32,000 nt of DNA. It comes from a virus. The notes beneath the pieces were generated by a model that worked only from the letters and a program-made list of their open reading frames with translations, searched no databases and was not told the DNA's origin. The stretch lies in IMG/VR virus record IMGVR_UViG_3300014059_000004; one strand, written 5' to 3'. Of this stretch, positions 3 through 30,506 are shown piece after piece (position 1 is the stretch's first letter; each line of letters begins with the position of its first letter). A program made the position numbers and the translations under genes.

Positions 3-335
3 ATGACTCTTAAAGATCTAAGACGTCTTATAAGAGAAACGTGGGGTGCGGCTGCATCTGGTGCTGACCCGAAAGATGCTGAGGGTTTTTATCCTTACGA
101 GATCGAGCGTGGTGCTGACATACACTCGTTCTGGTACAGATCGCCCGCACGAAGCATGGGTTCTGATGGCGACCCAGGACGCCCGGCAGACGCTGCTGAG
201 TACATCGGCATGAAACCTCCAGCACCAGAAGCCACTGGTGAAGAAGGTGGCGAGGCTGAGACTCCTGAAGGCGGCGAATCGCCGCCAGCTGAAACAACAA
301 CGAGCGAACCGGCTGATGACGAAAATTTGGCTTGA
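3..335 (+). CDS. hypothetical protein with N-terminal MTLKDLRRLIRE leader and acidic Pro/Glu/Thr-rich tail
   Basis: ATG at 3, 110-aa ORF ending TGA 333-335; same strand and spacing as neighbours; leader motif shared with ORFs at 3387, 19584, 20107. Confidence 0.5.
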   Translation: MTLKDLRRLIRETWGAAASGADPKDAEGFYPYEIERGADIHSFWYRSPARSMGSDGDPGRPADAAEYIGMKPPAPEATGEEGGEAETPEGGESPPAETTTSEPADDENLA

Positions 336-660
336 CGATCAGATCAACGATCCACACACTCCTGACCGTTGGGTACCCATGGGCTACGTGGGTGCTGCAA
401 CTGCCCGTGAGGCATGCCGCCTCCTCTCGCGCGGGGATGTTACCCACGTGGATTTTGATCACGATCTTGGTGATCGAACGTTGGGTTCTGGTTACACGGT
501 CGCCCGCTTCATCGAAAAGGGTGCTGCTTTGGGAACAGTGAAGCCCCTGACTTGGACGATCCATTCTGCAAACCCTGTCGGCCGCAGCAACATCGCAGCT
601 GCCATGGCTTCTGCAGAGAGGTTTTGGAGCAGATTAACACGTGGGCCTCAAGAAAAATAA
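316..660 (+). CDS. cyclic-phosphate-processing receiver-like (cREC / REC-fold) domain protein
   Basis: ATG 316 inside ORF 238..660, 20-nt overlap with upstream gene; motifs KIWLDD, DFDHDLG, GSGYTVARFIE, IHSANPVGR match my recollection of the phage cREC receiver family. Confidence 0.55.
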   Translation: MTKIWLDDQINDPHTPDRWVPMGYVGAATAREACRLLSRGDVTHVDFDHDLGDRTLGSGYTVARFIEKGAALGTVKPLTWTIHSANPVGRSNIAAAMASAERFWSRLTRGPQEK

Positions 661-3791: not shown

Positions 3792-3862
3792 CAAAAAGTG
3801 AAGAGGCGGTGTACAGCCGCTGCCCAGAAGGTTATACTTACAACGTACCGCAACGGCGGTGC

Positions 3863-3936
3863 AGAGTACGATGTGGCGGGTAGCCCGGGAATCCCTGATA
3901 AGGAATCTGCGCAGAGTTCGAGTCTCTGGTACTCTA
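3863..3936 (+). pseudogene. degenerate tRNA-like cloverleaf (Ile GAT-type loop CTGATAA)
   Basis: 7-bp acceptor AGAGTAC/GTACTCT, T arm CAGAG-TTCGAGT-CTCTG, anticodon arm AATCC-CTGATAA-GGAAT with an A:A mismatch, but no convincing D stem; its 3' end plus trailer recurs at 6255-6278. Confidence 0.35.
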
Positions 3937-3970
3937 CGAAAGAAAAAAGAGTGTACATCTCGAGACGGGA

Positions 3971-3979
3971 TGGTATACT
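3971..3979 (+). promoter_or_regulatory. extended -10-like box TGGTATACT
   Basis: Member of the recurrent YGGTATAMT motif; lies in a 450-nt noncoding stretch. Confidence 0.35.
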
Positions 3980-4037
3980 TAAGCAAGAGTAAGTCATGTT
4001 CATCACGATAGCAAACAAGCAGAACGCTCAAAAGCAA

Positions 4038-4046
4038 TGGTATAAT
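4038..4046 (+). promoter_or_regulatory. extended -10 box TGGTATAAT (perfect TGn + TATAAT)
   Basis: Best match to a bacterial extended -10 in the window; no ORF immediately downstream, a structured region follows. Confidence 0.45.
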
Positions 4047-4049
4047 GCC

Positions 4050-4223
4050 GTTGCTGATAAAAATCGTTTCTGACGGGTGCTCACTGCCCCGTCCGCTTCC
4101 GGGGTAGAGAATGGTGATGAGAAGAAGCCAAATCTAGACCGACAGAAGTGCTGACGAAGTAGTGAGCTCCCCAAGCGGTATTAGTCCCGTAGGGCTCGGG
4201 GCCTGACTGTAAGTAAATTTACA
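4050..4223 (+). ncRNA. structured untranslated leader or small RNA upstream of the HNH gene
   Basis: Nested helices seen by eye: GACGGG/CCCGTC (about 4071-4098) and GAGC(T)CCC/GGGCTC (about 4164-4199); no ORF; shares the strings CCGGGG(T)AGA and GAT(G)AGAAGAAG..AAATC with 18698-18894. Confidence 0.3.
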
Positions 4224-4244
4224 GTGAACATAATATGTATTTGC

Positions 4245-4646
4245 ATGAAAGAAAATCGTTCATGCAAGGTGTGTCAGACTGAATTTGAAATTAGTAAGAA
4301 ACAACAAATTAAACGTGAAGTATGTAGCGCACGCTGTGCGCGAAAACTCCAATGGAAAGGAACTCATAACCCTCATTCAATTCTAGATTGTTCATCACGA
4401 ACAGTAACAAAAATTCTGAAGCGCATTGGGATGATGAAATGTTCAATGTGTGGATGGGATCAAGGTACGTGTGATGTACATCACATCAATGGCAAAAAAA
4501 TTGAAAATGCAAATTGTCATTCAAATCTAGCACTTGTGTGTCCAAATTGTCATCGATTGGCACATGAGAAGAAAATTTCCCCTAATGAACTAATTACATT
4601 TGAACAATTTGTTGGTGATAAATGGAAAGAAGGTTATTACGGGTAA
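4245..4646 (+). CDS. HNH homing endonuclease
   Basis: ATG 4245 inside ORF 4224..4646; N-terminal CKVC...CSARC zinc ribbon, CDVHHINGKK...NLALVCPNCHRLAH HNH core; AT-rich relative to flanks; embedded in a tRNA island. Confidence 0.75.
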   Translation: MKENRSCKVCQTEFEISKKQQIKREVCSARCARKLQWKGTHNPHSILDCSSRTVTKILKRIGMMKCSMCGWDQGTCDVHHINGKKIENANCHSNLALVCPNCHRLAHEKKISPNELITFEQFVGDKWKEGYYG

Positions 4647-4654
4647 TATGTTTC

Positions 4655-4744
4655 GGAGTAGTTGAGCAATGGCGTGCTCGTCGGTCTGTAAATCCGATCC
4701 CTTTGCGGTGAACACTGTGGGTTCGAATCCCACCTACTCCACCA
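4655..4744 (+). tRNA. tRNA-Tyr: tRNA-Tyr (GTA), long variable arm, CCA encoded
   Basis: Acceptor GGAGTAG/CTACTCC, D arm GAGC-AATGGCGT-GCTC, anticodon arm TCGGT-CTGTAAA-TCCGA, 19-nt variable arm, T arm GTGGG-TTCGAAT-CCCAC, A-CCA. Confidence 0.85.
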
Positions 4745-4794
4745 AGGAAAAGTTCAACTCTTCCTGTAGTTCATTGAAAATCTACGTTTAACAT

Positions 4795-4868
4795 CCTCGT
4801 GTAGCTTAATGCAAAGCGCTGGCAGATTCTGCCTGAAGATGTTGGGTCAAAACCAACTGCGGGGGCCA
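4795..4868 (+). tRNA. atypical tRNA-like gene, anticodon loop AGATTCT (G33; formal anticodon ATT)
   Basis: Acceptor CCTCGTG/TGCGGGG (3 G:U), D arm GCTT-AATGCA-AAGC, arm CTGGC-AGATTCT-GCCTG (T:T mismatch), T arm GTTGG-GTCAAAA-CCAAC (no TTC), G-CCA; correct overall length (71+3). Confidence 0.4.
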
Positions 4869-4884
4869 TTCCGGAGTCGTTCAA

Positions 4885-4893
4885 CGGTATATG
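4885..4893 (+). promoter_or_regulatory. -10-like box CGGTATATG, 8 nt upstream of ATG 4902
   Basis: YGGTATAMT family member; no Shine-Dalgarno between the box and the ATG. Confidence 0.35.
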
Positions 4894-4901
4894 ATAAGTT
4901 C

Positions 4902-5546
4902 ATGAACTCCATAAAACATGATTGTCCTTTTTGTGAAAAACAATTCTCCAAATATGGAATTAAATCACACATATGGAGAGTTCACGGATCAGGAATTAAT
5001 CATAAACCAACACAAGGAAAACAATCTTGGTGTAAAGGTCTGACCAAAACGTCTGATGTTAGAGTTCGACAATTTGGTCAGACATATAGCAGAAATATTC
5101 TTGAAGGAAAGACACAAATTTGGAGCACTGGAAAAACAAAATTTACAGATGATCGTCTAAAACGAATTTCAGAAAAGAATACTCAAACAGTCAATCAAAA
5201 ATTGAATGAAGGAACGTGGCACAATTCCTTTGCAAAGTCTAGAAAACAATTCTATAAAAATGAAATGTTTGATGGCATGTGGGAAGTTAAATTTGCCATA
5301 TGGCTTGATTCACAATCGATTCCCTGGATTAGAAATAAGAAATGCTTTTCATACTTTTTTGATCATGAAAGGAAATATATTCCTGATTTTTATCTTCCTA
5401 ACATTCAATGTTACGTTGAAATCAAGGGTTGGAAGACGAAAAAAGATGAGGCAAAATGGAGAGATTTTCCAGAAAATCTACTCATCTTGTCAGGAAGTGA
5501 TTTGATGTTGCTTGGTCTAGACATCAAAGCTAAAGAATGGAAATAA
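4902..5546 (+). CDS. putative PD-(D/E)xK-type homing endonuclease with N-terminal C2H2 finger
   Basis: ATG 4902 inside ORF 4809..5546 (the upstream part of that ORF is the tRNA-like gene); CPFC...HIWRVH finger; C-terminal GMWEVKFAIWLD...YIPDFYL...YVEIKGW resembles TnsA/Vsr-like PD-ExK cores; paralog on the - strand at 21473..22156; AT-rich. Confidence 0.6.
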   Translation: MNSIKHDCPFCEKQFSKYGIKSHIWRVHGSGINHKPTQGKQSWCKGLTKTSDVRVRQFGQTYSRNILEGKTQIWSTGKTKFTDDRLKRISEKNTQTVNQKLNEGTWHNSFAKSRKQFYKNEMFDGMWEVKFAIWLDSQSIPWIRNKKCFSYFFDHERKYIPDFYLPNIQCYVEIKGWKTKKDEAKWRDFPENLLILSGSDLMLLGLDIKAKEWK

Positions 5547-5549
5547 CAT

Positions 5550-5669
5550 TGTCCGGTAGCCAAGTGGTAAGGCAGGTGGCTGTGGAAGATGACATATCAA
5601 GTGTCTTGGTTCAAATCAAAATCTTCAAAAATAACCACCCTATCCTAGGTTCGAATCCTAGCTGGACAG
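5550..5669 (+). tRNA. tRNA gene with a 48-nt insertion in the anticodon loop (loop begins CTGTGGA = His GTG; Gln-like U1:A72 body)
   Basis: Acceptor TGTCCGG/CTGGACA, D arm GCC-AAGTGGTAA-GGC, perfect anticodon stem GGTGG (5575-5579) / CCACC (5635-5639) enclosing 55 nt, variable CTATC, T arm CTAGG-TTCGAAT-CCTAG; insert folds as GAAGAT/ATCTTC plus two inner hairpins. Confidence 0.5.
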
Positions 5670-5675
5670 CTTCAT

Positions 5676-5753
5676 CGATCTGTAACTCAGCGGAATCAGA
5701 GTAGCTCCCTCTTAAGGAGAACGTCGTGGGTTCGAATCCCACCAGATCGACCA
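5676..5753 (+). tRNA. tRNA-Lys: tRNA-Lys (CTT), CCA encoded
   Basis: Acceptor CGATCTG/CAGATCG, D arm ACTC-AGCGGAATCA-GAGT, arm GCTCC-CTCTTAA-GGAGA, T arm GTGGG-TTCGAAT-CCCAC, A-CCA. Confidence 0.85.
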
Positions 5754-5758
5754 AATTT

Positions 5759-5850
5759 CGGGTGGTAGCCAAGCGGTTAAGGCAGCGGGTTTATATTCCG
5801 TTTAGCGTCTGATAAGCGCAAGACCGGGGGTTCGAATCCCTCTCACCCGA
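5759..5850 (+). tRNA. tRNA-Ile (GAT)-like gene with a 19-nt hairpin inserted between position 26 and the anticodon stem
   Basis: Acceptor CGGGTGG/TCACCCG, D arm GCC-AAGCGGTTAA-GGC, extra hairpin GCGGG-TTTATAT-TCCGT (5785-5801), then AGCGT-CTGATAA-GCGCA (5804-5820) at canonical distance (variable AGACC) from T arm GGGGG-TTCGAAT-CCCTC. Confidence 0.5.
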
Positions 5851-5852
5851 CT

Positions 5853-5913
5853 AGTGATCAGTAACTACTATATGTTCACGGTCTTTGAAACCGTGAGAAT
5901 GTGAAAAATCACT
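5853..5913 (+). ncRNA. conserved 61-nt inter-tRNA spacer element, copy 1
   Basis: Outer stem AGTGAT/ATCACT, 5' arm CAGTAACTAC, central hairpin TCACGGT-CTTTGAA-ACCGTGA, 3' arm GTGAAAA; same architecture with compensatory outer-stem change at 25275-25334. Confidence 0.4.
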
Positions 5914-5993: not shown

Positions 5994-6067
5994 AGCGGGA
6001 TAGAGCAGTTAGGTAGCTTGCTTGGCTCATAACCAAGAGGTCGTGTGTTCAAATCACACTCCCGCGT
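5994..6067 (+). tRNA. tRNA-Met: tRNA-Met or Ile2 (CAT), 1:72 mismatch
   Basis: Acceptor AGCGGGA/TCCCGCG (A1:G72 unpaired), D arm GAGC-AGTTAGGTA-GCTT, arm CTTGG-CTCATAA-CCAAG, T arm GTGTG-TTCAAAT-CACAC. Confidence 0.7.
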
Positions 6068-6073
6068 CTATAT

Positions 6074-6146
6074 TGGCCTGTCGTCTAGCGGCAATGACAC
6101 CATCTTGCAAGATGGATTATCGTGGGTTCGAGTCCCACCAGGTCAA
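6074..6146 (+). tRNA. tRNA-Cys: tRNA-Cys (GCA)-like with a 6-nt anticodon loop
   Basis: Acceptor TGGCCTG/CAGGTCA, T arm GTGGG-TTCGAGT-CCCAC, anticodon arm CCATC-TTGCAA-GATGG: perfect 5-bp stem but only 6 loop nt. Confidence 0.55.
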
Positions 6147-6172
6147 CTGCTTCCACATGGAAGCGATACAAT

Positions 6173-6243
6173 GGGAAGTTCGTATAATGGGATTACGGGT
6201 GCCTTGCACGCACTTTATACGCGTTCAAATCGCGTACTTTCCA
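6173..6243 (+). tRNA. tRNA-Ala: tRNA-Ala (TGC)
   Basis: Acceptor GGGAAGT/ACTTTCC with the G3:U70 Ala identity pair, arm GGTGC-CTTGCAC-GCACT, T arm ACGCG-TTCAAAT-CGCGT. Confidence 0.85.
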
Positions 6244-6254
6244 CTCCTAGGAAA

Positions 6255-6278
6255 AGTCGCTGGTACTCTACGAAAAAA
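6255..6278 (+). pseudogene. orphan tRNA 3'-end fragment (copy of 3921-3948)
   Basis: AGTCGCTGGTACTCTACGAAAAAA versus AGTCTCTGGTACTCTACGAAAGAAAAAA at the 3' end and trailer of the tRNA-like element at 3863-3936; no 5' half present. Confidence 0.5.
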
Positions 6279-6323
6279 CGTCAGCACGCCTGTCGCCAGT
6301 CGGCAGGCAAACGGGTAGCCAAT

Positions 6324-19395: not shown

Positions 19396-19502
19396 GGGTC
19401 TGATACCTCAGACTGGCAAAGGTCGGGTGGCGGGAGATGTGAAGTCTCAGTCCGCTGGCAATACCCAACTTATCGCGGGTTCGAATCCCGCCAGATCCAC
19501 CA
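19396..19502 (+). tRNA. tRNA-Ala: tRNA-Ala (GGC) with a 25-nt hairpin inserted 5' of the anticodon loop, CCA encoded
   Basis: Acceptor GGGTCTG/CAGATCC with G3:U70, perfect D arm ACCT-CAGACTGGCAA-AGGT, stem GGGTG (19425-29) / TACCC (19462-66), canonical loop CTGGCAA (19455-61) preceded by insert 19430-19454 (GCGG-GAGA-TGTGAAG-TCTC-AGT-CCG), T arm GCGGG-TTCGAAT-CCCGC, A-CCA. Confidence 0.55.
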
Positions 19503-21177: not shown

Positions 21178-21351
21178 ATGGAAATCAAGAAGGTTCTCAA
21201 GTACGTTAGTTTGGCTGGTGCTGTTCTTGCTGCTGGTGCCGCTATCGGTGTTGCGGTGAAGTTGCTGAAGGAGAAGCTTCAAGAAGAAAAGCCGCAGAGC
21301 TTAATCTGCTACGCTAGCTATACTCGAATGGCTTCAGAGGGCGCACTGTGA
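21178..21351 (+). CDS. small membrane protein (57 aa); ORF runs into tRNA-His
   Basis: Hand-translated MEIKKVLKYVSLAGAVLAAGAAIGVAVKLLKEKLQEEKPQSL...; AAGGTAAG upstream; no in-frame stop before the tRNA at 21313. Confidence 0.35.
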   Translation: MEIKKVLKYVSLAGAVLAAGAAIGVAVKLLKEKLQEEKPQSLICYASYTRMASEGAL

Positions 21352-21386
21352 CTGCGCTTATGCGGGTTCGAATCCCGTTAGCTAGA
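21313..21386 (+). tRNA. tRNA-His: tRNA-His (GTG) with encoded G-1
   Basis: G-1 then acceptor CTAGCTA/TAGCTAG, arm GCGCA-CTGTGAC-TGCGC, T arm GCGGG-TTCGAAT-CCCGT, discriminator A. Confidence 0.85.
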
Positions 21387-21399
21387 CTCACGATAATTT

Positions 21400-22526: not shown

Positions 22527-22600
22527 GTTACTGTGACGGAACTGGCATACGTTCTAGGCTCAGAACCTAGATTTTGTGGGTTCGACTCCCACCAGTAACA
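22527..22600 (+). tRNA. tRNA-Leu: tRNA-Leu (CAG) with only a 5-nt variable loop
   Basis: Acceptor GTTACTG/CAGTAAC, Leu-type D arm ACG-GAACTGGCATA-CGT, arm CTAGG-CTCAGAA-CCTAG, variable ATTTT, T arm GTGGG-TTCGACT-CCCAC. Confidence 0.8.
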
Positions 22601-22621
22601 CTAGCTTAATTTACGCTTTAT

Positions 22622-24038: not shown

Positions 24039-24623
24039 ATGAAATTTTCAAAGAAAATCATCGGGCTAGCAGTTTGCTGCGCAGTTGCGCTTCTCTCGAA
24101 CACTGCTTCGGGTTCATTCGCAAAGAATCGTGATCCGCTGCAACGCGACAAGCAGCTAACGCCTCTATCAGACGTCCAGCTCGTCAGAGCTCTTCGAGAT
24201 TCTCACGTTGAGAACTTTGGGTTCGAGCCTTCGCCGGCGAAGCTTGCTATGGCTTGGGCTCAAGTGGCTCTAGAGAATGGCCAGGGAAAGTTCGTGTGGA
24301 ATCACAACCTTGGGAACATTGGCTCGCCGCCAGGGACTTCGCACGAATTCTACGTTCACTCATCGTACACTTCTTACAGATCGTTCGAAGGTTACCTTGA
24401 AGGCGGTGTAGCTTACTGGCGGACGGTGAGGCGCTGCGGATCGGCATGGGCCAACTTTGAAGTTGGAAATGCGACAGCGTCGGCTCTTTACCTCAAGAAC
24501 TGCGGTTACTACGGTGCTGACACAGATCAGTACGTTCGTGGAATGAATGAACTGTACGCTTACGCTCTAGGAAACGTGATTCCAAGAGAAGCTCGAGAGG
24601 CTACAAATGAGGGAAAAGATTGA
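24039..24623 (+). CDS. secreted peptidoglycan hydrolase, glucosaminidase (FlgJ/LytD-like) domain
   Basis: Signal peptide MKFSKKIIGLAVCCAVALLSNTASG; AMAWAQVALENGQGKFVWNHNLGNIG resembles the A.LESGWG ... NN.FGI glucosaminidase motif. Confidence 0.5.
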   Translation: MKFSKKIIGLAVCCAVALLSNTASGSFAKNRDPLQRDKQLTPLSDVQLVRALRDSHVENFGFEPSPAKLAMAWAQVALENGQGKFVWNHNLGNIGSPPGTSHEFYVHSSYTSYRSFEGYLEGGVAYWRTVRRCGSAWANFEVGNATASALYLKNCGYYGADTDQYVRGMNELYAYALGNVIPREAREATNEGKD

Positions 24624-25077
24624 GCGGTTCACAGATGAATTTGCATTCTTGTCAAACTTCTACCCGAGCACAATCTCCCACGAGGGAAAGCTCTGGCCAA
24701 CAGTTGAGCATGCCTACGCAGCCGAAAAAACTCTTGACCCGGAGGAAAAAGAGAGAATTCGTAAAGCAGAAACTCCAGGCCGCGCGAAATCTATGGGGAG
24801 AGCTGCTAGTCTACGCCCTGACTGGGATTCGATAAAGGTTGACGTGATGCGGAAGTTGGTGAAGGAAAAGTTCCGAAATCCTATCCTAAGAGAGTTGTTG
24901 ATCGCCACGGGTGATGCAGAGCTCATAGAAGGAAACAACTGGAACGATACTTTCTTCGGAGTCTGCAGGGGTCGTGGCCAAAATTGGTTGGGTCGAATCC
25001 TTGAAGAAGTTAGAGAAGAGATTCTTGCTGAAATTGCAGCAGATGAAGAAGTGAACTCTTCACTTCGCGCAAGGTAA
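24607..25077 (+). CDS. NADAR (YbiA / DUF1768) domain protein
   Basis: FLSNFYPS ... WPTVEHAYAAEK ... TPGRAKSMGR ... RPDWD ... LLIATGDAELIEGNNWNDTFFGV ... GQNWLGRIL: the family pattern as I remember it. Confidence 0.75.
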   Translation: MREKIERFTDEFAFLSNFYPSTISHEGKLWPTVEHAYAAEKTLDPEEKERIRKAETPGRAKSMGRAASLRPDWDSIKVDVMRKLVKEKFRNPILRELLIATGDAELIEGNNWNDTFFGVCRGRGQNWLGRILEEVREEILAEIAADEEVNSSLRAR

Positions 25078-25659: not shown

Positions 25660-26440
25660 TATGCAAATAGGTTCGGAAATCATATATACATAATGACGCT
25701 TGATGATAAACGCTTTTATGGCTATAAACATTGGACACTTGAGAAAATTCCTCGTTGTTTTTATGTAGGTAAAGGATTGATTCGTCGACCATACGACGGT
25801 CGACGAAGTAAAAAGTGGCATGCAGTTGTTAAAGCTTTTGGATTGAGAGTCGAAATTTGCATCGGACCTGTAACTAATAAAGAAGCAATCGATTGGGAAA
25901 TACTAACAATCAAAACTACGGGAACCTATAGCAAAAATTACATTTACAGAGGGAATGATGTAAGTTGCAATTTTACCCAGGGTGGTGATGGTGCTTCTGG
26001 GCGACAACTTTCTAGTGACGCTCGTCTAAAAATTGGTGATGCTCAACGAGGAAAAGAAAAATCGAGTGAAACACGTTTGAAAATTAGTGAATCACTCAAA
26101 GGTAGAAAATTGTCACTAGAAGTTCGACAAAAAATGAGTCTTATTCGTAAAAATAAGCAATTGTCTAAGACACACAAAGAAAATTTGTGGATTAGAAGAT
26201 CTAGAACATTTTCTGAACAACATCGTAAAAAGCTTAGTGAAGCTGCTAAGAAAAGAAAAGTATCACAAGAAACTTGTGCGCGAAGGAGCCTTTCTCTTAA
26301 AGGAAAATTTCATCATTGTAGTTTGTGTGGGTTGATCGGTCATAATCGTTTGTCGTGTGATTTCAAAGTTGAATATGAAAAAATTTGAAGTTAAACAGGT
26401 AATAGTTGTAAGAAACGATCTTGGAATGAGAAAAGGCAAG
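25656..26440 (+). mobile_element. GIY-YIG homing-endonuclease cassette carrying a replacement 5' end for pth2
   Basis: AT-rich block bounded by the truncated pth2 remnant on the left and by the return to normal composition about 65 nt into the Pth2 ORF on the right; boundaries approximate. Confidence 0.45.
25693..26388 (+). CDS. GIY-YIG family homing endonuclease with NUMOD3 repeats and a C-terminal CCHC knuckle
   Basis: FYGYKH ... CFYVGKG ... R ... E ... N layout; five or six S.E.R.K(I/M)S..(K/R)G-type repeats (for example SSETRLKISESLKGRK); HHCSLCGLIGHNRLSC = CX2CX4HX4C. Confidence 0.7.
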   Translation: MTLDDKRFYGYKHWTLEKIPRCFYVGKGLIRRPYDGRRSKKWHAVVKAFGLRVEICIGPVTNKEAIDWEILTIKTTGTYSKNYIYRGNDVSCNFTQGGDGASGRQLSSDARLKIGDAQRGKEKSSETRLKISESLKGRKLSLEVRQKMSLIRKNKQLSKTHKENLWIRRSRTFSEQHRKKLSEAAKKRKVSQETCARRSLSLKGKFHHCSLCGLIGHNRLSCDFKVEYEKI

Positions 26441-26887
26441 ATAGCTGCGCAAGTTGCTCATGCATCGATGCAGTTCCTGCTCGATGCGAATCAGTCTGAT
26501 TCTTTCGGTGAGTTGCATGTGGTGCTGACGCCCGAAGAGATCGAATGGTTGAACGGATCATTCACCAAGATTGTCGTAGGTGTGGATTCAGAGAACGTTT
26601 TGAACGAGCTCGTCCTTCGAGCTAAGATGTCAGACATCACTGTCTTCCAGATCGTTGATTCTGGCAAGACTGAATTCAATGGAGTTCCAACGTTGACTTG
26701 CGCAGCATTTGGACCAAACGATGCTGCAGACATCGATAAGATCACTGGTCATCTAAAACTCATCTTACAACGGGCGCATAGCTTAGTGGCTAAAGCATTT
26801 GGTCTACACCCAAATTATCGGGGGTTCGAGTCCCTCTGCGCCTACAGTGGAAACATGCTCGAGAGGCTGAAGAGATCGGTTTGCTAA
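26375..26887 (+). CDS. pth2: peptidyl-tRNA hydrolase, Pth2 (archaeal/eukaryotic) type; ORF reads through tRNA-Val
   Basis: ATG 26375 inside ORF 26357..26887; VIVVRNDLGMRKGKIAAQVAHAS ... KIVVGV ... IVDSGKTEF ... PTLTCAAFGP ... ITGHLKLI; homology should end near 26765, but no stop occurs until 26885-26887. Confidence 0.75.
   Translation: MKKFEVKQVIVVRNDLGMRKGKIAAQVAHASMQFLLDANQSDSFGELHVVLTPEEIEWLNGSFTKIVVGVDSENVLNELVLRAKMSDITVFQIVDSGKTEFNGVPTLTCAAFGPNDAADIDKITGHLKLILQRAHSLVAKAFGLHPNYRGFESLCAYSGNMLERLKRSVC
26772..26844 (+). tRNA. tRNA-Val: tRNA-Val (TAC) with C33
   Basis: Acceptor GGGCGCA/TGCGCCT, D arm GCTT-AGTGGCTA-AAGC, arm TTTGG-TCTACAC-CCAAA, T arm GGGGG-TTCGAGT-CCCTC. Confidence 0.8.
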
Positions 26888-27547: not shown

Positions 27548-27937
27548 ATGCCAACGAAAAAGATCAAAGACGTCGATCCGAAATACCTTGATAAGGTGTG
27601 CTACGATCCCGGACACAACGTACCAGGCATGCAGGTTTTTGAACCAGGAACGTACGAGCATACGTGTCCATCGTGTGGAAACAAGATTGTATTTACAGTG
27701 TCCAGACCATTTTGGTTAGGCACAATGCGGGTAAAGCCTATTGGTAGGGCAGCAGTTTTCCAAACTGTCGCGAAAGCATTGAGAGTTCGATTCTCTCTAT
27801 CCGCTCAGGTGAAACGTAGATTATGTCAGCAGAAAAAAAGAAGATCAGAGCGGCATTTCGTGATGCCGTTTTTGCTCGTGATGGCAGGAGATGCAAGAAG
27901 TGTTCAGCTACGGTCGCTGATTACTTGCGCTTCCTAG
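27548..27937 (+). CDS. small zinc-ribbon-like protein; ORF runs through tRNA-Gly (true end uncertain)
   Basis: ATG 27548 after AGGAG inside ORF 27458..27937; C..PGH ... CPSCG; from 27727 the frame reads tRNA sequence and then overlaps the next HNH gene. Confidence 0.4.
   Translation: MPTKKIKDVDPKYLDKVCYDPGHNVPGMQVFEPGTYEHTCPSCGNKIVFTVSRPFWLGTMRVKPIGRAAVFQTVAKALRVRFSLSAQVKRRLCQQKKRRSERHFVMPFLLVMAGDARSVQLRSLITCAS
27727..27805 (+). tRNA. tRNA-Gly: tRNA-Gly (TCC) with a 12-nt variable region
   Basis: Acceptor GCGGGTA/TATCCGC, D arm GCC-TATTGGTAG-GGC, arm GCAGT-TTTCCAA-ACTGT, variable CGCGAAAGCATT, T arm GAGAG-TTCGATT-CTCTC. Confidence 0.75.
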
Positions 27938-29266: not shown

Positions 29267-29273
29267 TTTGTTC

Positions 29274-30506
29274 ATGGCACGTCCTCTTGTCGTAGAATTT
29301 TTGAAGAACCACTCGCTCCAGGAGCTGGAGCGAATGCACGGTGTTTGTGCACGAGCAAGCGCGGATGGTTCAAAGTATGGTCTCAACTATGACATGCTTT
29401 TGTCAAAGCCTGGTGATCAGCTCGCGGGCGAGTGTCGCGGGATGGTTATCCGACCGCTTGTTCGAATTTCTGCCGGCAGCGAAGCACCAGTTGGTGACGT
29501 AGAGGTCGTTGCGTGGCCAATGAGCAGGTTTTACAATCACGGTGATCCTAACGCTGCGACCGTTGATTGGTCTGACCCAAACCTTGACGTCTTCGAGAAG
29601 CTTGATGGCACGATGATAGTCATGTATTGGGATGCTGTTGCGCAAGTTTGGCATGCCGGAACTCGAAGTGTTCCAGAAGCTGACCTGCCGATCTGCAAAG
29701 AACACGTAGAGATCGGGAACAAGACGTTTTCCCAGCTGTTTTGGGATGCTATGAGGAGCATGTTCGAAGCCAATCGCTTCCTCGAAGCATCGAACTTCGA
29801 GGAATGGGTGAACTCTTCCTTCAACAAGGAAGTTACGTACGTCTTCGAGCTCACGAGCCCATACAACCGCGTCGTTGTCAAGTACGAAGATACGAAGGCA
29901 ACGCTTCTCGCGGCACGTCACACGGCATCCGGTGAAGAGATGCGGGTTCATGTTAGTTCCATCGGATTGCCTATCATTCCTCGAGCAAAGACGTGGAAGA
30001 TAAGCTCAGCTTCTGCACTCGAAGCGTTCGTCAACGCTGCAGATCCTACGACGATGGAAGGTGCAGTCGTTCTCGACAGCAAGTTCAATCGCTTGAAGAT
30101 GAAGAACATGGCGTGGGTGCTGTCATCTCGCGCTAAGGACCTCGTGACTGTCTCTAGGCGATCAGCATTGCTGGCAATCATCAAGGGAACGATCGACGAT
30201 ATCATCCCTCTTGTGTCAGAGGATATCAGCAAGGAACTCATGAAGATGCAAGAGCAGCTTGTTACGTTGTGTGCCAACATGGACGCAAAGTTTCAACAGT
30301 TCTTCATCGAAGCTGACAGTAATCGTCGACGTTTTGCAGAGCTAGTCCTTACGCAGGACGACTGCATCCCTGCACCGTTCTTCTCGATGTGGGAAGGTCG
30401 CGTTCCTTCGACGCTTGGTTGGTTCCGAAGCGTAGCGGAAGCAGGTAAGTTGTCCTCGCAGATGCTCGATAATACACTTAACCACATGGGGAAAACCACC
30501 TCTTAA
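29274..30506 (+). CDS. ATP-dependent RNA-ligase-like nucleotidyltransferase (KxDG)
   Basis: ATG 29274 in ORF 29268..30506; motif I FEKLDGTM, YVFELTSP (motif IIIa-like), EGAVVLD (IV), LKMKN (V); no recognisable DNA-ligase OB domain; a separate DNA ligase is at 12187. Confidence 0.55.
   Translation: MARPLVVEFLKNHSLQELERMHGVCARASADGSKYGLNYDMLLSKPGDQLAGECRGMVIRPLVRISAGSEAPVGDVEVVAWPMSRFYNHGDPNAATVDWSDPNLDVFEKLDGTMIVMYWDAVAQVWHAGTRSVPEADLPICKEHVEIGNKTFSQLFWDAMRSMFEANRFLEASNFEEWVNSSFNKEVTYVFELTSPYNRVVVKYEDTKATLLAARHTASGEEMRVHVSSIGLPIIPRAKTWKISSASALEAFVNAADPTTMEGAVVLDSKFNRLKMKNMAWVLSSRAKDLVTVSRRSALLAIIKGTIDDIIPLVSEDISKELMKMQEQLVTLCANMDAKFQQFFIEADSNRRRFAELVLTQDDCIPAPFFSMWEGRVPSTLGWFRSVAEAGKLSSQMLDNTLNHMGKTTS

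Follow-up and report, generated by a model that had tools for sequence, protein, structure and literature searches.

A split tRNA-Asn gene and a long-armed tRNA-Ile(UAU) gene in a phage tRNA array

We analyzed a 32-kb stretch of DNA from the IMG/VR virus record IMGVR_UViG_3300014059_000004 (hereafter, the window), in which ARAGORN found 39 tRNA genes (41 with intron search on). Here, we focus on two of them, both on the + strand: gene A (positions 5550–5669), whose anticodon is interrupted by a short insert, and gene B (5759–5850), which bears an extra hairpin. A free-standing gene for a 245-amino-acid protein of the homing-endonuclease type (4809–5546, + strand) stops 3 nt before gene A. An initial annotation had described genes A and B as otherwise intact tRNA genes carrying extra hairpins, which was borne out for both. 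They are real tRNA genes, scoring 49.2 and 52.9 bits, respectively, with the Rfam tRNA model (RF00005; curated threshold, 29 bits), and they represent two unrelated phenomena, both of which had been mis-parsed. Gene A (120 nt) was found in 15 loci from independent assemblies, with 100% identity in 14 and 96.7% in one, and gene B was 100% identical in 12 loci and differed by one base in three. Because the genes recur near-identically in 15 independently assembled loci, an assembly artefact is excluded. Literature searches retrieved no description of either the family of split tRNA-Asn inserts or the family of tRNA-Ile(UAU) genes reported below, and both oddities apparently belong to recurring, undescribed families.

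The split tRNA-Asn gene and its insert

Gene A comprises a first exon (5550–5583; 5′ strand of the acceptor, D arm, 5′ strand of the anticodon stem, and C32 U33 G34 U35), a 48-nt insert (5584–5631), and a second exon (5632–5669; U36 A37 A38, 3′ strand of the anticodon stem, variable loop, T arm, 3′ strand of the acceptor, and G73). As initially annotated, the acceptor, D, and T arms are intact in the fold, and the anticodon stem GGTGG/CCACC encloses 55 nt instead of 7. Removing 5584–5631 in silico restored the loop CTGTTAA (Asn GUU); ARAGORN called the spliced gene tRNA-Asn(gtt), and its best 12 matches among 267 tRNAs of relatives were all tRNA-Asn. Strain L093, which shares with the window an identical sigma factor and 100% identical Lys(ctt) and gene B sequences, carries an uninterrupted 73-nt tRNA-Asn at the same place and with the same flanks, and the alignment gap between the two is exactly 48 nt, lying between CTGT and TAA. 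No other placement restores the L093 loop, and the insert therefore lies between U35 and U36 (35|36). Furthermore, gene A has U1–A72 and G73, as do other tRNA-Asn of the same phage group, and it occupies the Asn slot, between Tyr and Lys(ctt), of a tRNA order that is conserved in relatives: Ile(gat)-Tyr-Asn(gtt)[-Asn]-Lys(ctt)-...-Lys(ttt)-Met. The other 40 tRNAs of the window (ARAGORN intron mode) cover 19 amino acids, Asn alone being missing, and the 9 kb upstream of the first tRNA island contained no tRNA, hence no further Asn tRNA there or in the window. Strain L089 differs from the window by a compensatory change (C-G to G-C) at the T-stem pair 49:65. Gene A is thus a phage tRNA-Asn(GUU) gene whose anticodon is split at 35|36 by a 48-nt insert.

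The initial annotation had read the same letters as a tRNA-His(GUG) gene with an insertion at 38/39, a reading that we find hardly tenable. ARAGORN in intron mode does print tRNA-His(gtg) with a 48-nt intron ("intron at 36"), because CTGTG plus AA also makes a legal loop. However, the close homologues are all tRNA-Asn, the uninterrupted allele reads CTGTTAA, and the alignment gap places the insert at 35|36. In addition, the extra G−1 of tRNA-His is absent, with T at base −1 (5549) and G at base 73, and a separate, uninterrupted tRNA-His gene lies at 21314–21387. Covariance and intron-mode searches, which had been proposed as checks, agree with the initial annotation that both genes are tRNAs (Rfam), whereas the His call of ARAGORN for gene A was misleading. 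The remark that the inserts do not follow the archaeal and eukaryal 37/38 rule holds for the insert of gene A at its corrected position.

As the initial annotation had stated, the extra 48 nt fold on themselves; they form a three-way junction (−9.4 kcal/mol for the insert alone, z = −2.1). In the minimum free energy (MFE) fold, an unpaired G5584 is followed by stem P1, in which 5585–5590 (GAAGAU) pairs with 5621–5626 (AUCUUC), and P1 encloses hairpin a (5591–5605) and hairpin b (5606–5619), the latter with a T-loop-like UUCAA in its loop; the tail AAAAA (5627–5631) completes the insert. Including the window, we found inserts of 18–67 nt in eight diverged phage lineages, all at CTGT|TAA of tRNA-Asn. 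Homologues of the adjacent nuclease led to five of the seven further loci (L180 and L181, 51 nt each; L207, 18 nt; L301, 67 nt; L303, 49 nt), a site-specific scan of the collected loci led to L102 (67 nt), and a pattern scan of IMG/VR, with one true match among 37, led to L285 (47 nt). Folded singly, the inserts share one design, namely one unpaired G, stem P1, two hairpins, and five unpaired 3′ bases (z from −1.0 to −3.6), with two deviations: the insert of L207 is a bare hairpin lacking the inner hairpins, and the tail in L181 is 4 nt long. P1 reads GRRGAU/AUCUYC in six members, GUUCUU/AAGGAC in L181, and GUCC/GGAC in L207; compared with the window, it is fully compensated in L181, and A-U/G-C swaps occur in other members. 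The 3′ tail is constant in length and variable in sequence. The loop of the second hairpin contains UCRA in all seven three-way junctions and the T-loop-like UUCRANN in five of them. These insert comparisons come from single-sequence folds only, as MAFFT misplaced the L181 insert. Outside tRNA-Asn, a regular-expression search for the P1 motif in 3.9 Mb of collected loci returned chance matches only. Comparison of orthologous genes, another check that had been proposed, thus revealed presence/absence polymorphism and a common insert geometry at a single site, together with covariation within the insert that is limited mainly to L181, L207, and single swaps.

The identical 35|36 site is also used by true group I introns of 192–199 nt. 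We found these in tRNA-Asn genes of L036 (~6046–6310), L077 (6153–6422), L199 (2913–3185), L204 (2900–3167), and L205 (2879–3144), based on a match to Rfam RF00028 for L077 and on the intron starts and ends; the introns start with CAAAAAGGCAGC and end in G, and ARAGORN mislabels the genes as Asp, His, or Thr with intron. Could the insert of gene A be a degenerate or miniature member of this or another known class of intron or ribozyme (group I, bulge-helix-bulge, hammerhead, twister, pistol, and others)? That true group I introns hold the same site in relatives speaks for it, but the remaining evidence makes it highly improbable. The insert has no sequence similarity to those introns, no internal guide sequence, and no terminal G (it ends in A), and 48 nt is about a quarter of their length. 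No RF00028 match at E ≤ 1 was found in 5530–5870, in keeping with the initial view that the inserts are too short for group I introns. With relaxed filters, Rfam matches at E ≤ 1 in the same interval comprised only tRNA and weak plastid untranslated-region noise, and no hammerhead, twister, pistol, hatchet, or HDV-like ribozyme. Nor is there a bulge-helix-bulge: in the MFE fold of the pre-tRNA, the anticodon stem and P1 are separated by an asymmetric internal loop of 5 × 8 nt, and, by inspection, the predicted splice points are offset by one pair and do not lie in 3-nt bulges 4 bp apart. We accordingly rejected the insert as a hammerhead, a group I remnant, or a bulge-helix-bulge intron on sequence and geometry. 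A full tRNA mimic was also rejected: P1 and a T-arm-like hairpin occur together in five members, but the loops of L285 and L301 differ and L207 lacks the inner hairpins. So was a mini open reading frame (ORF) within the insert, because its Shine–Dalgarno-like GGAAG directly abuts AUG.

Group I introns in anticodon loops are known from bacteria and phages, for example in cyanobacterial tRNA-Leu(UAA) and Azoarcus tRNA-Ile (review, PMC3984707). Like them, the insert of gene A breaks a bacterial-type anticodon loop directly after a U, it sits at the exact 35|36 site of tRNA-Asn, and it is linked to a homing endonuclease gene. By contrast, the inserts measure 18–67 nt rather than ~190 nt or more and have no catalytic core, guide sequence, terminal G, or Rfam match, and they therefore cannot self-splice by group I chemistry. 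The insert of gene A thus appears to represent a new type of insert, short and structured, that occupies a site known for group I introns and is tied to a gene of the homing-endonuclease type.

Other interrupted tRNA-like genes were noticed in the course of the analysis. A second split tRNA of the window (19396–19502) resembles tRNA-Ala(GGC): it has G3:U70 and A73, and its T arm is the same as that of Ala(ggc) in L013 and L008. A 25-nt hairpin (GCGGGAGATGTGAAGTCTCAGTCCG) is placed just before the loop CTGGCAA, and the D arm is unusual. It was found by ARAGORN intron mode only, and not by Rfam at the gathering score, and it recurs unchanged in two further assemblies; we saw no allele free of the insert. 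Downstream of distant nuclease homologues in L194 (3227–3367) and LR756500.1 (L467, ~1450–1560), a tRNA-like gene (TGGCCGAGTAGCTTAGT...) carries an AT-rich insertion of ~62 nt, unlike the Asn insert family. ARAGORN intron calls at L039 and L073 (Ser, 282 nt) and at L008 (Leu, 364 nt) were dropped because they had no Rfam support.

Probable homing and the fate of the insert

The protein encoded at 4809–5546 combines a C2H2-like zinc finger at the N terminus with NUMOD3-like repeats and, at the C terminus, a T7-endonuclease-I-like PD-(D/E)XK nuclease domain. It matches the PHROG endonuclease families 15137 (4e-14), 9019, and 945, and its homologues carry PF05367 (Phage_endo_I), NUMOD3, and zf-C2H2. 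The residues W-E, PDF, and E-x-K-G (E...PDF...E-x-K-G) are invariant across 31 sequences of the family, and the family profile matches T7 endonuclease I structures (1M0D, E = 3.9e-6; 1FZR and 2PFJ; E = 4e-6 to 8e-5 overall). Both the motif and the fold are those of a PD-(D/E)XK, T7-endonuclease-I-like enzyme, its gene is polymorphic among strains, and cleavage is predicted. A scan of IMG/VR with this single protein gave no match; an alignment-based scan found the homologues.

The initial annotation had considered endonuclease repair scars as one origin of the inserts. For gene A, the connection with an endonuclease comes close to what we observed: the homing-type gene lies 3 nt upstream, and strain L093 lacks both the nuclease ORF and the insert. 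L093 and the window form a mosaic (window 3800–5700 versus L093 2400–3300), in which identity is 98.7% in Ile(gat), 62% in Tyr, and 80.6% in the Asn exons and then 100% through Lys(ctt) and gene B; the Tyr-nuclease-Asn block is thus 62–81% identical between flanks of 99–100%. This pattern is consistent with a converted tract. In L091 (6875–7124), the insert is kept and the nuclease gene is internally deleted, with residues 38–197 lost, and the insert or intron persists without any nuclease gene in L102, L285, and L077; such losses would be signs of a homing cycle. In many phage arrays, a member of the nuclease family immediately precedes a tRNA gene, which is tRNA-Asn more often than any other. 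Such a gene usually neighbours the 18–67-nt inserts, and it adjoins four of the five tRNA-Asn genes with group I introns; the start of tRNA-Met is overlapped by distant homologues in cultured Ackermannviridae. Between these same tRNAs, GIY-YIG and HNH genes have been gained or lost in other strains.

At the DNA level, the nuclease gene and the insert most likely travel together by homing, a proposal that we base on two precedents. T4 SegB is a free-standing homing endonuclease encoded in a tRNA cluster that preferentially cuts the tRNA-Asn gene of T2L, and its homing replaces the Met-Tyr-Asn-Arg tract (PMC2330249). The window likewise has a free-standing nuclease gene within a phage tRNA array, and the Tyr and Asn of the SegB tract match the Tyr-to-Asn mosaic between the window and L093. 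In contrast, SegB is a GIY-YIG enzyme that cuts in the T arm in a system without a tRNA insert, whereas the protein at 4809–5546 is a predicted nuclease of the PD-(D/E)XK, T7-endonuclease-I-like type. In collaborative or trans homing, as in T4 mobE/I-TevIII (PMC2790892) and F-CphI with the cyanophage psbA intron (PMC6083498), the endonuclease gene also lies beside, not inside, the interrupted gene, and both are inherited together; there, however, the intron is self-splicing and the nuclease was shown to cut the insertion site, whereas for the insert of gene A we found no exit from the RNA by known routes, and a cut at its site would be a prediction. By analogy, competitor genomes that lack the nuclease would be cut by it within the tRNA-Asn gene or close to it, and the Tyr-nuclease-Asn block would be copied during repair. 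The insert might additionally confer immunity on its carrier. Counting against this last step, ordinary anticodon loops are equally common next to the nuclease (16 of the 23 uninterrupted Asn genes directly downstream of the family) and elsewhere (36 of 50 other Asn genes), and the idea that the insert is needed to destroy the target of the nuclease is therefore unsupported. A target inside the anticodon loop is likewise not supported, as loop variants are equally common with and without an adjacent nuclease.

What becomes of the RNA is a separate question. We consider the chance that protein enzymes remove the insert from the RNA, i.e. that gene A is spliced, to be close to even. One of the origins initially proposed, a new type of small tRNA intron, may thus apply to gene A. 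When spliced in silico, the genes of seven insert-bearing loci were all called tRNA-Asn by ARAGORN (7/7). In the alignment of their exons, 97.9% of the cells are paired and 17 of 21 pairs show double changes, a result matched by none of 500 shuffles and nowhere near reached by slid registers. Such flawless cloverleaves argue against gene decay, and conservation favours a role at the RNA level.

Alternatively, gene A may be dead, the insert being a DNA-level passenger or scar of a selfish homing cassette that is never removed, with host tRNA-Asn used instead. We regard this as a real, if lesser, possibility. It accords with the lack of any ribozyme, group I, or bulge-helix-bulge signature, with the tight linkage of the insert to a mobile nuclease gene, its presence/absence polymorphism, and the mosaic tract, with the second, uninterrupted Asn gene that L180, L301, L303, and L102 hold nearby, and with the bare hairpin of L207. 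Against it, eight diverged lineages keep flawless exons, exact CUGU/UAA loop halves, a common geometry, and compensatory changes; the insert outlasts deletion or loss of the nuclease gene; and no other Asn tRNA occurs in the window or in the 9 kb upstream of the first tRNA island.

Several points weigh against splicing itself. To our knowledge, no mechanism is known in bacteria or phages that removes a tRNA intron of 18–67 nt. The insert has no ribozyme (Rfam), terminal G, or bulge-helix-bulge, and Pfam scans of 40 window ORFs found no EndA/Sen-type splicing endonuclease. Since phages can do without some of their tRNA genes, a dead one could be carried along by a selfish cassette, and a further tRNA-Asn may sit outside the 32-kb window of a genome of probably ~300 kb. 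Much of the exon covariation may predate the insertions. In addition, the sequence of P1 is conserved in six of eight members, with covariation within the insert coming mainly from L181, L207, and single swaps, and the 18-nt insert of L207 lacks both inner hairpins.

At the RNA level, the insert folds to a compact stem or three-way junction and leaves the tRNA body intact. If splicing does occur, protein enzymes measuring from P1 would cut 1 nt 5′ and 5 nt 3′ of it. A ruler-type enzyme is suggested because these offsets are constant while the tail sequence varies. An ATP-dependent RNA ligase, for which the phage Rnl1-like enzyme is a candidate, would then join U35 to U36. As to the cuts, two ideas can be offered. 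The insert, with G·A, P1, and a 4-nt tail, may have the end geometry of a mature tRNA; alternatively, an extended anticodon helix (U33-A37, G34·U36), with U35 as "discriminator", may offer RNase Z-type and RNase P-type sites, and these cuts would leave U35-3′OH and 5′P-U36. Ends of this kind in anticodon loops are sealed by Rnl1-type ligases, such as T4 Rnl1. Candidate cutters would be the host enzymes that process tRNA ends (RNase P and RNase Z) or a phage nuclease.

The initial annotation had also pointed to a set of genes in the window that would suit a cut-and-rejoin pathway, of which an RNA ligase and a cyclic-phosphate receiver stood, whereas we could find no Tpt1-like protein. A T4 Rnl1-like RNA ligase is encoded at 29268–30506 (+ strand; PF09511 RNA_lig_T4_1, E = 2.1e-10, 41.3 bits against a cut-off of 28.3); should the insert be excised, this enzyme could do the sealing. 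A cREC_REC (cyclic-phosphate processing receiver) protein is encoded at 238–660 (+ strand; PF20274, E = 9.7e-19); we take it as RNA-repair context only. The Pfam scans of the 40 ORFs found no Tpt1-like protein and instead a NADAR domain protein (24607–25077), which lies among the tRNA islands, as does a PTH2-type peptidyl-tRNA hydrolase (26357–26887). The PTH2, NADAR, and cREC_REC proteins may have counter-defence or RNA-repair functions.

The proposed pathway resembles archaeal and eukaryal tRNA splicing in that an otherwise ordinary tRNA has a short structured insert in its anticodon loop, constant helix distances suggest a ruler-type protein enzyme, and a gene for an RNA ligase is close by. 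It differs in the position of the insert (35|36, not 37|38) and in the lack of a bulge-helix-bulge and of an EndA/Sen homologue among the 40 ORFs. The host is bacterial, and we know of no tRNA splicing pathway in bacteria that uses a bulge-helix-bulge endonuclease and a ligase. Splicing of gene A by proteins would represent the first tRNA splicing pathway of the bacterial and phage world that is not self-splicing. A class of tRNA introns and a protein-based cut-and-rejoin reaction so far thought confined to archaea and eukaryotes would then occur in viruses that infect bacteria, and phage RNA ligases would gain a role beyond repairing the damage of anticodon nucleases. A lack of splicing would show that the spread of a homing cassette can come at the cost of a tRNA gene and that short structured inserts can replace a self-splicing intron at the same site. 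Either way, tRNA finders mislabel split Asn genes as His, Ile, Lys, or Thr "with intron", and annotations miss tRNA-Asn.

A tRNA-Ile(UAU) family with a GAU arm

Gene B was called tRNA-Ile(tat) by ARAGORN. Two hairpins lie between its D and T arms, as initially annotated. The first (5785–5801; GCGGG UUUAUAU UCCGU) is the anticodon arm, with the anticodon TAT at 5792–5794, and the second (5805–5819) has the loop CTGATAA (5809–5815), in which GAT (5811–5813) is invariant in the family described below. Rfam aligned gene B with a 20-nt insertion in the variable region, i.e. the second hairpin is a long variable arm of the class II type. The initial annotation had instead placed a 19-nt insertion at 26/27 before an Ile arm with CTGATAA, which is contradicted by ARAGORN, Rfam, and the alignment of 33 relatives. 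Its view that both inserts are one phenomenon fails as well, as the extra hairpin of gene B is a conserved variable arm.

We collected 48 distinct long tRNA-Ile(UAU) sequences, all with the anticodon UAU (48/48). Two came from cultured phages, Lactobacillus phage LpeD (MF787246.1, ~138770–138861; an unannotated copy) and Acinetobacter phage vB_AbaS_qsb1 (PV107591.1, 38075–38162; annotated simply as tRNA-Ile). Genes of this type, 93–94 nt long and with a likewise GAU-centred second loop, occur in nuclease-linked loci of the unrelated contigs L210 and L225, and a pattern scan of IMG/VR returned many more. When all seven bases of the loop were left free in the search pattern, GAU was at the loop centre in 37 of 37 distinct viral matches. 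The same pattern gave 18 matches in one genome per species of 185,579 species, eight of them in long tRNA-Ile(UAU) genes; GAU was present in all eight (8/8), six of which lie within dense arrays of 16–31 tRNAs per 8 kb, whereas the ten non-tRNA matches had other triplets at the loop centre in nine cases and GAT in one. In an alignment of 33 family members, the five helices had 96.8% of cells paired (99.2% in the extra-arm helix), and the anticodon stem covaries freely, whereas the stem of the extra arm is nearly constant in sequence. The loop of the first hairpin is YUUAUAY in every member. From sequence and covariation, gene B is tRNA-Ile with the anticodon UAU, and its extra hairpin is the conserved variable arm of a widespread phage family.

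The converse assignment, with the second hairpin (CUGAUAA) as the true anticodon arm of a tRNA-Ile(GAU) and the first as a 19-nt insertion at 26/27, has some appeal for gene B in isolation. There, the second loop looks canonical and is followed by a normal 5-nt variable loop, and deletion of the first hairpin makes the neighbouring Lys(ttt) gene the best match, with GCGCAAGA common to both. The family makes this assignment very unlikely. Most extra-arm loops (CAGAUUA, UAGAUGG) cannot be anticodon loops because they lack U33; they have A or C at 33 and U or G at 37, and the canonical-looking CUGAUAA of gene B is a minority form. The first loop is always YUUAUAY on a stem that covaries as freely as an anticodon stem should, and both Rfam and ARAGORN pick the first hairpin.

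Gene B would be a working tRNA that reads AUA. Isoleucyl-tRNA synthetase (IleRS) normally reads G34 or lysidine34, A35, and U36, and GAU is the anticodon of the major tRNA-Ile. Since GAU is invariant in the extra arm while IleRS reads these bases, the arm may act as a surrogate identity element that helps the host IleRS to accept a tRNA with U34, a reading that we put forward tentatively, at somewhat less than even confidence. Three points count against it. On a normal tRNA, the variable arm points away from the anticodon-binding domain of the synthetase. Thirteen distinct phage tRNA-Ile(UAU) genes are of ordinary length and have no arm. Lastly, a nematode tRNA-Ile(UAU) with a long variable arm is charged with leucine (PMC3333845).

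The nematode case raises the alternative that gene B recodes AUA because it accepts leucine or some other non-cognate amino acid. Gene B itself has the discriminator A73 and a 3-bp, class-II-like D stem, and the leucylated nev-tRNA-Ile(UAU) is a precedent (PMC3333845). Like that tRNA, it combines the anticodon UAU with a long variable arm normally found in Leu, Ser, and Tyr tRNAs only. Nematode nev-tRNAs, however, derive from tRNA-Leu and keep the determinants of leucyl-tRNA synthetase (PMC3333845, PMC4300185), whereas the phage family mostly has a class I body (an ordinary 4-bp D arm in most members), an arm unlike that of tRNA-Leu, and, as its invariant feature, the Ile triplet GAU. It also occurs in phages and tRNA arrays rather than in nematodes, and its anticodon, UAU throughout, is outside the Leu, Ser, Tyr, and Sec isotypes of class II tRNAs. 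We consider charging with leucine unlikely.

Another comparison concerns bacteria without TilS, such as Mycoplasma mobile, which use tRNA-Ile(UAU); the IleRS of M. mobile has co-evolved to accept U34 (PMC3575796). Both systems would read AUA with an unmodified-type UAU instead of lysidine-CAU. In M. mobile, the tRNA is of normal length and the synthetase is adapted, whereas the phage tRNA itself has an added arm. Gene B thus seems to be a new, widespread variant of long-armed tRNA, which occurs in cultured Lactobacillus and Acinetobacter phages and goes unremarked in annotation. If the GAU arm does act on IleRS, phages may make an AUA-reading tRNA acceptable to the IleRS of many hosts without lysidine, an idea that bears on the rules of tRNA identity and on tRNA engineering.

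Considering both genes, we lean on balance towards a tRNA-Asn split by an insert that probably moves with a homing cassette and may be spliced out of the RNA, beside an unrelated tRNA-Ile family with a GAU arm. The more specific combination, in which the intron is cut by a protein-only ruler mechanism and resealed by an Rnl1-type ligase and the GAU arm is a decoy anticodon for IleRS, is possible and more doubtful.

Long variable arms are also common on other normally class I tRNAs of these arrays (Asn, Lys, Met, Trp, Pro, and Cys), usually with small GAAA-type loops. Examples are L001 3819–3905, L005 4807–4892, L008 4577–4660, L014 1981–2064, L182 2830–2919, L184 4790–4882, L207 3234–3327, and L228 5059–5149, among others. 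In L071 (7165–7321), the D loop of a tRNA (Rfam, 35 bits) carries an 89-nt insertion and its anticodon loop is short; like gene B, it lies in the slot from Lys(ctt) to Lys(ttt).

The phage lineage and its tRNA arrays

No close phage was found in GenBank, as megablast and blastn searches of the region against 50,697 GenBank phages gave partial tRNA matches only. The sigma factor led to relatives among IMG/VR contigs, of which some measure 309–369 kb; the window therefore derives from a huge-phage lineage, with a genome of probably ~300 kb. A metagenome scan retrieved nothing closer than 78% sigma factor identity, and an exact-word scan of IMG/VR with the 5′ half of gene A gave no match. The tRNA genes of the window form several islands interspersed with small + strand ORFs. 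Apart from the nuclease at 4809–5546, the window encodes four HNH nucleases and one GIY-YIG/NUMOD3 nuclease, as well as a sigma factor and a DNA ligase, in addition to the RNA-repair-related proteins described above.

Further tRNAs of the arrays depart from the usual form. At 6074–6147, a tRNA of the window to which ARAGORN gives the label "???(gc)" has an anticodon loop of 6 nt (TTGCAA, flanked by CCATC and GATGG); strains L098 and L093 have a normal tRNA-Val(gac) in its place. The islands of relatives (L005, L008–L014, L180, L181, L188, and L258) contain many tRNAs with 6- or 8-nt anticodon loops (two- or four-base "anticodons") and also suppressor-type anticodons (tta, cta, and tca), which are concentrated in the slot between Lys(ctt) and Lys(ttt). 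Elsewhere in the window, a tRNA-Leu(cag) at 22527–22601 is only 75 nt long and lacks the long variable arm, and a tRNA-Gly(tcc) of 80 nt at 27727–27806 has an enlarged variable region.

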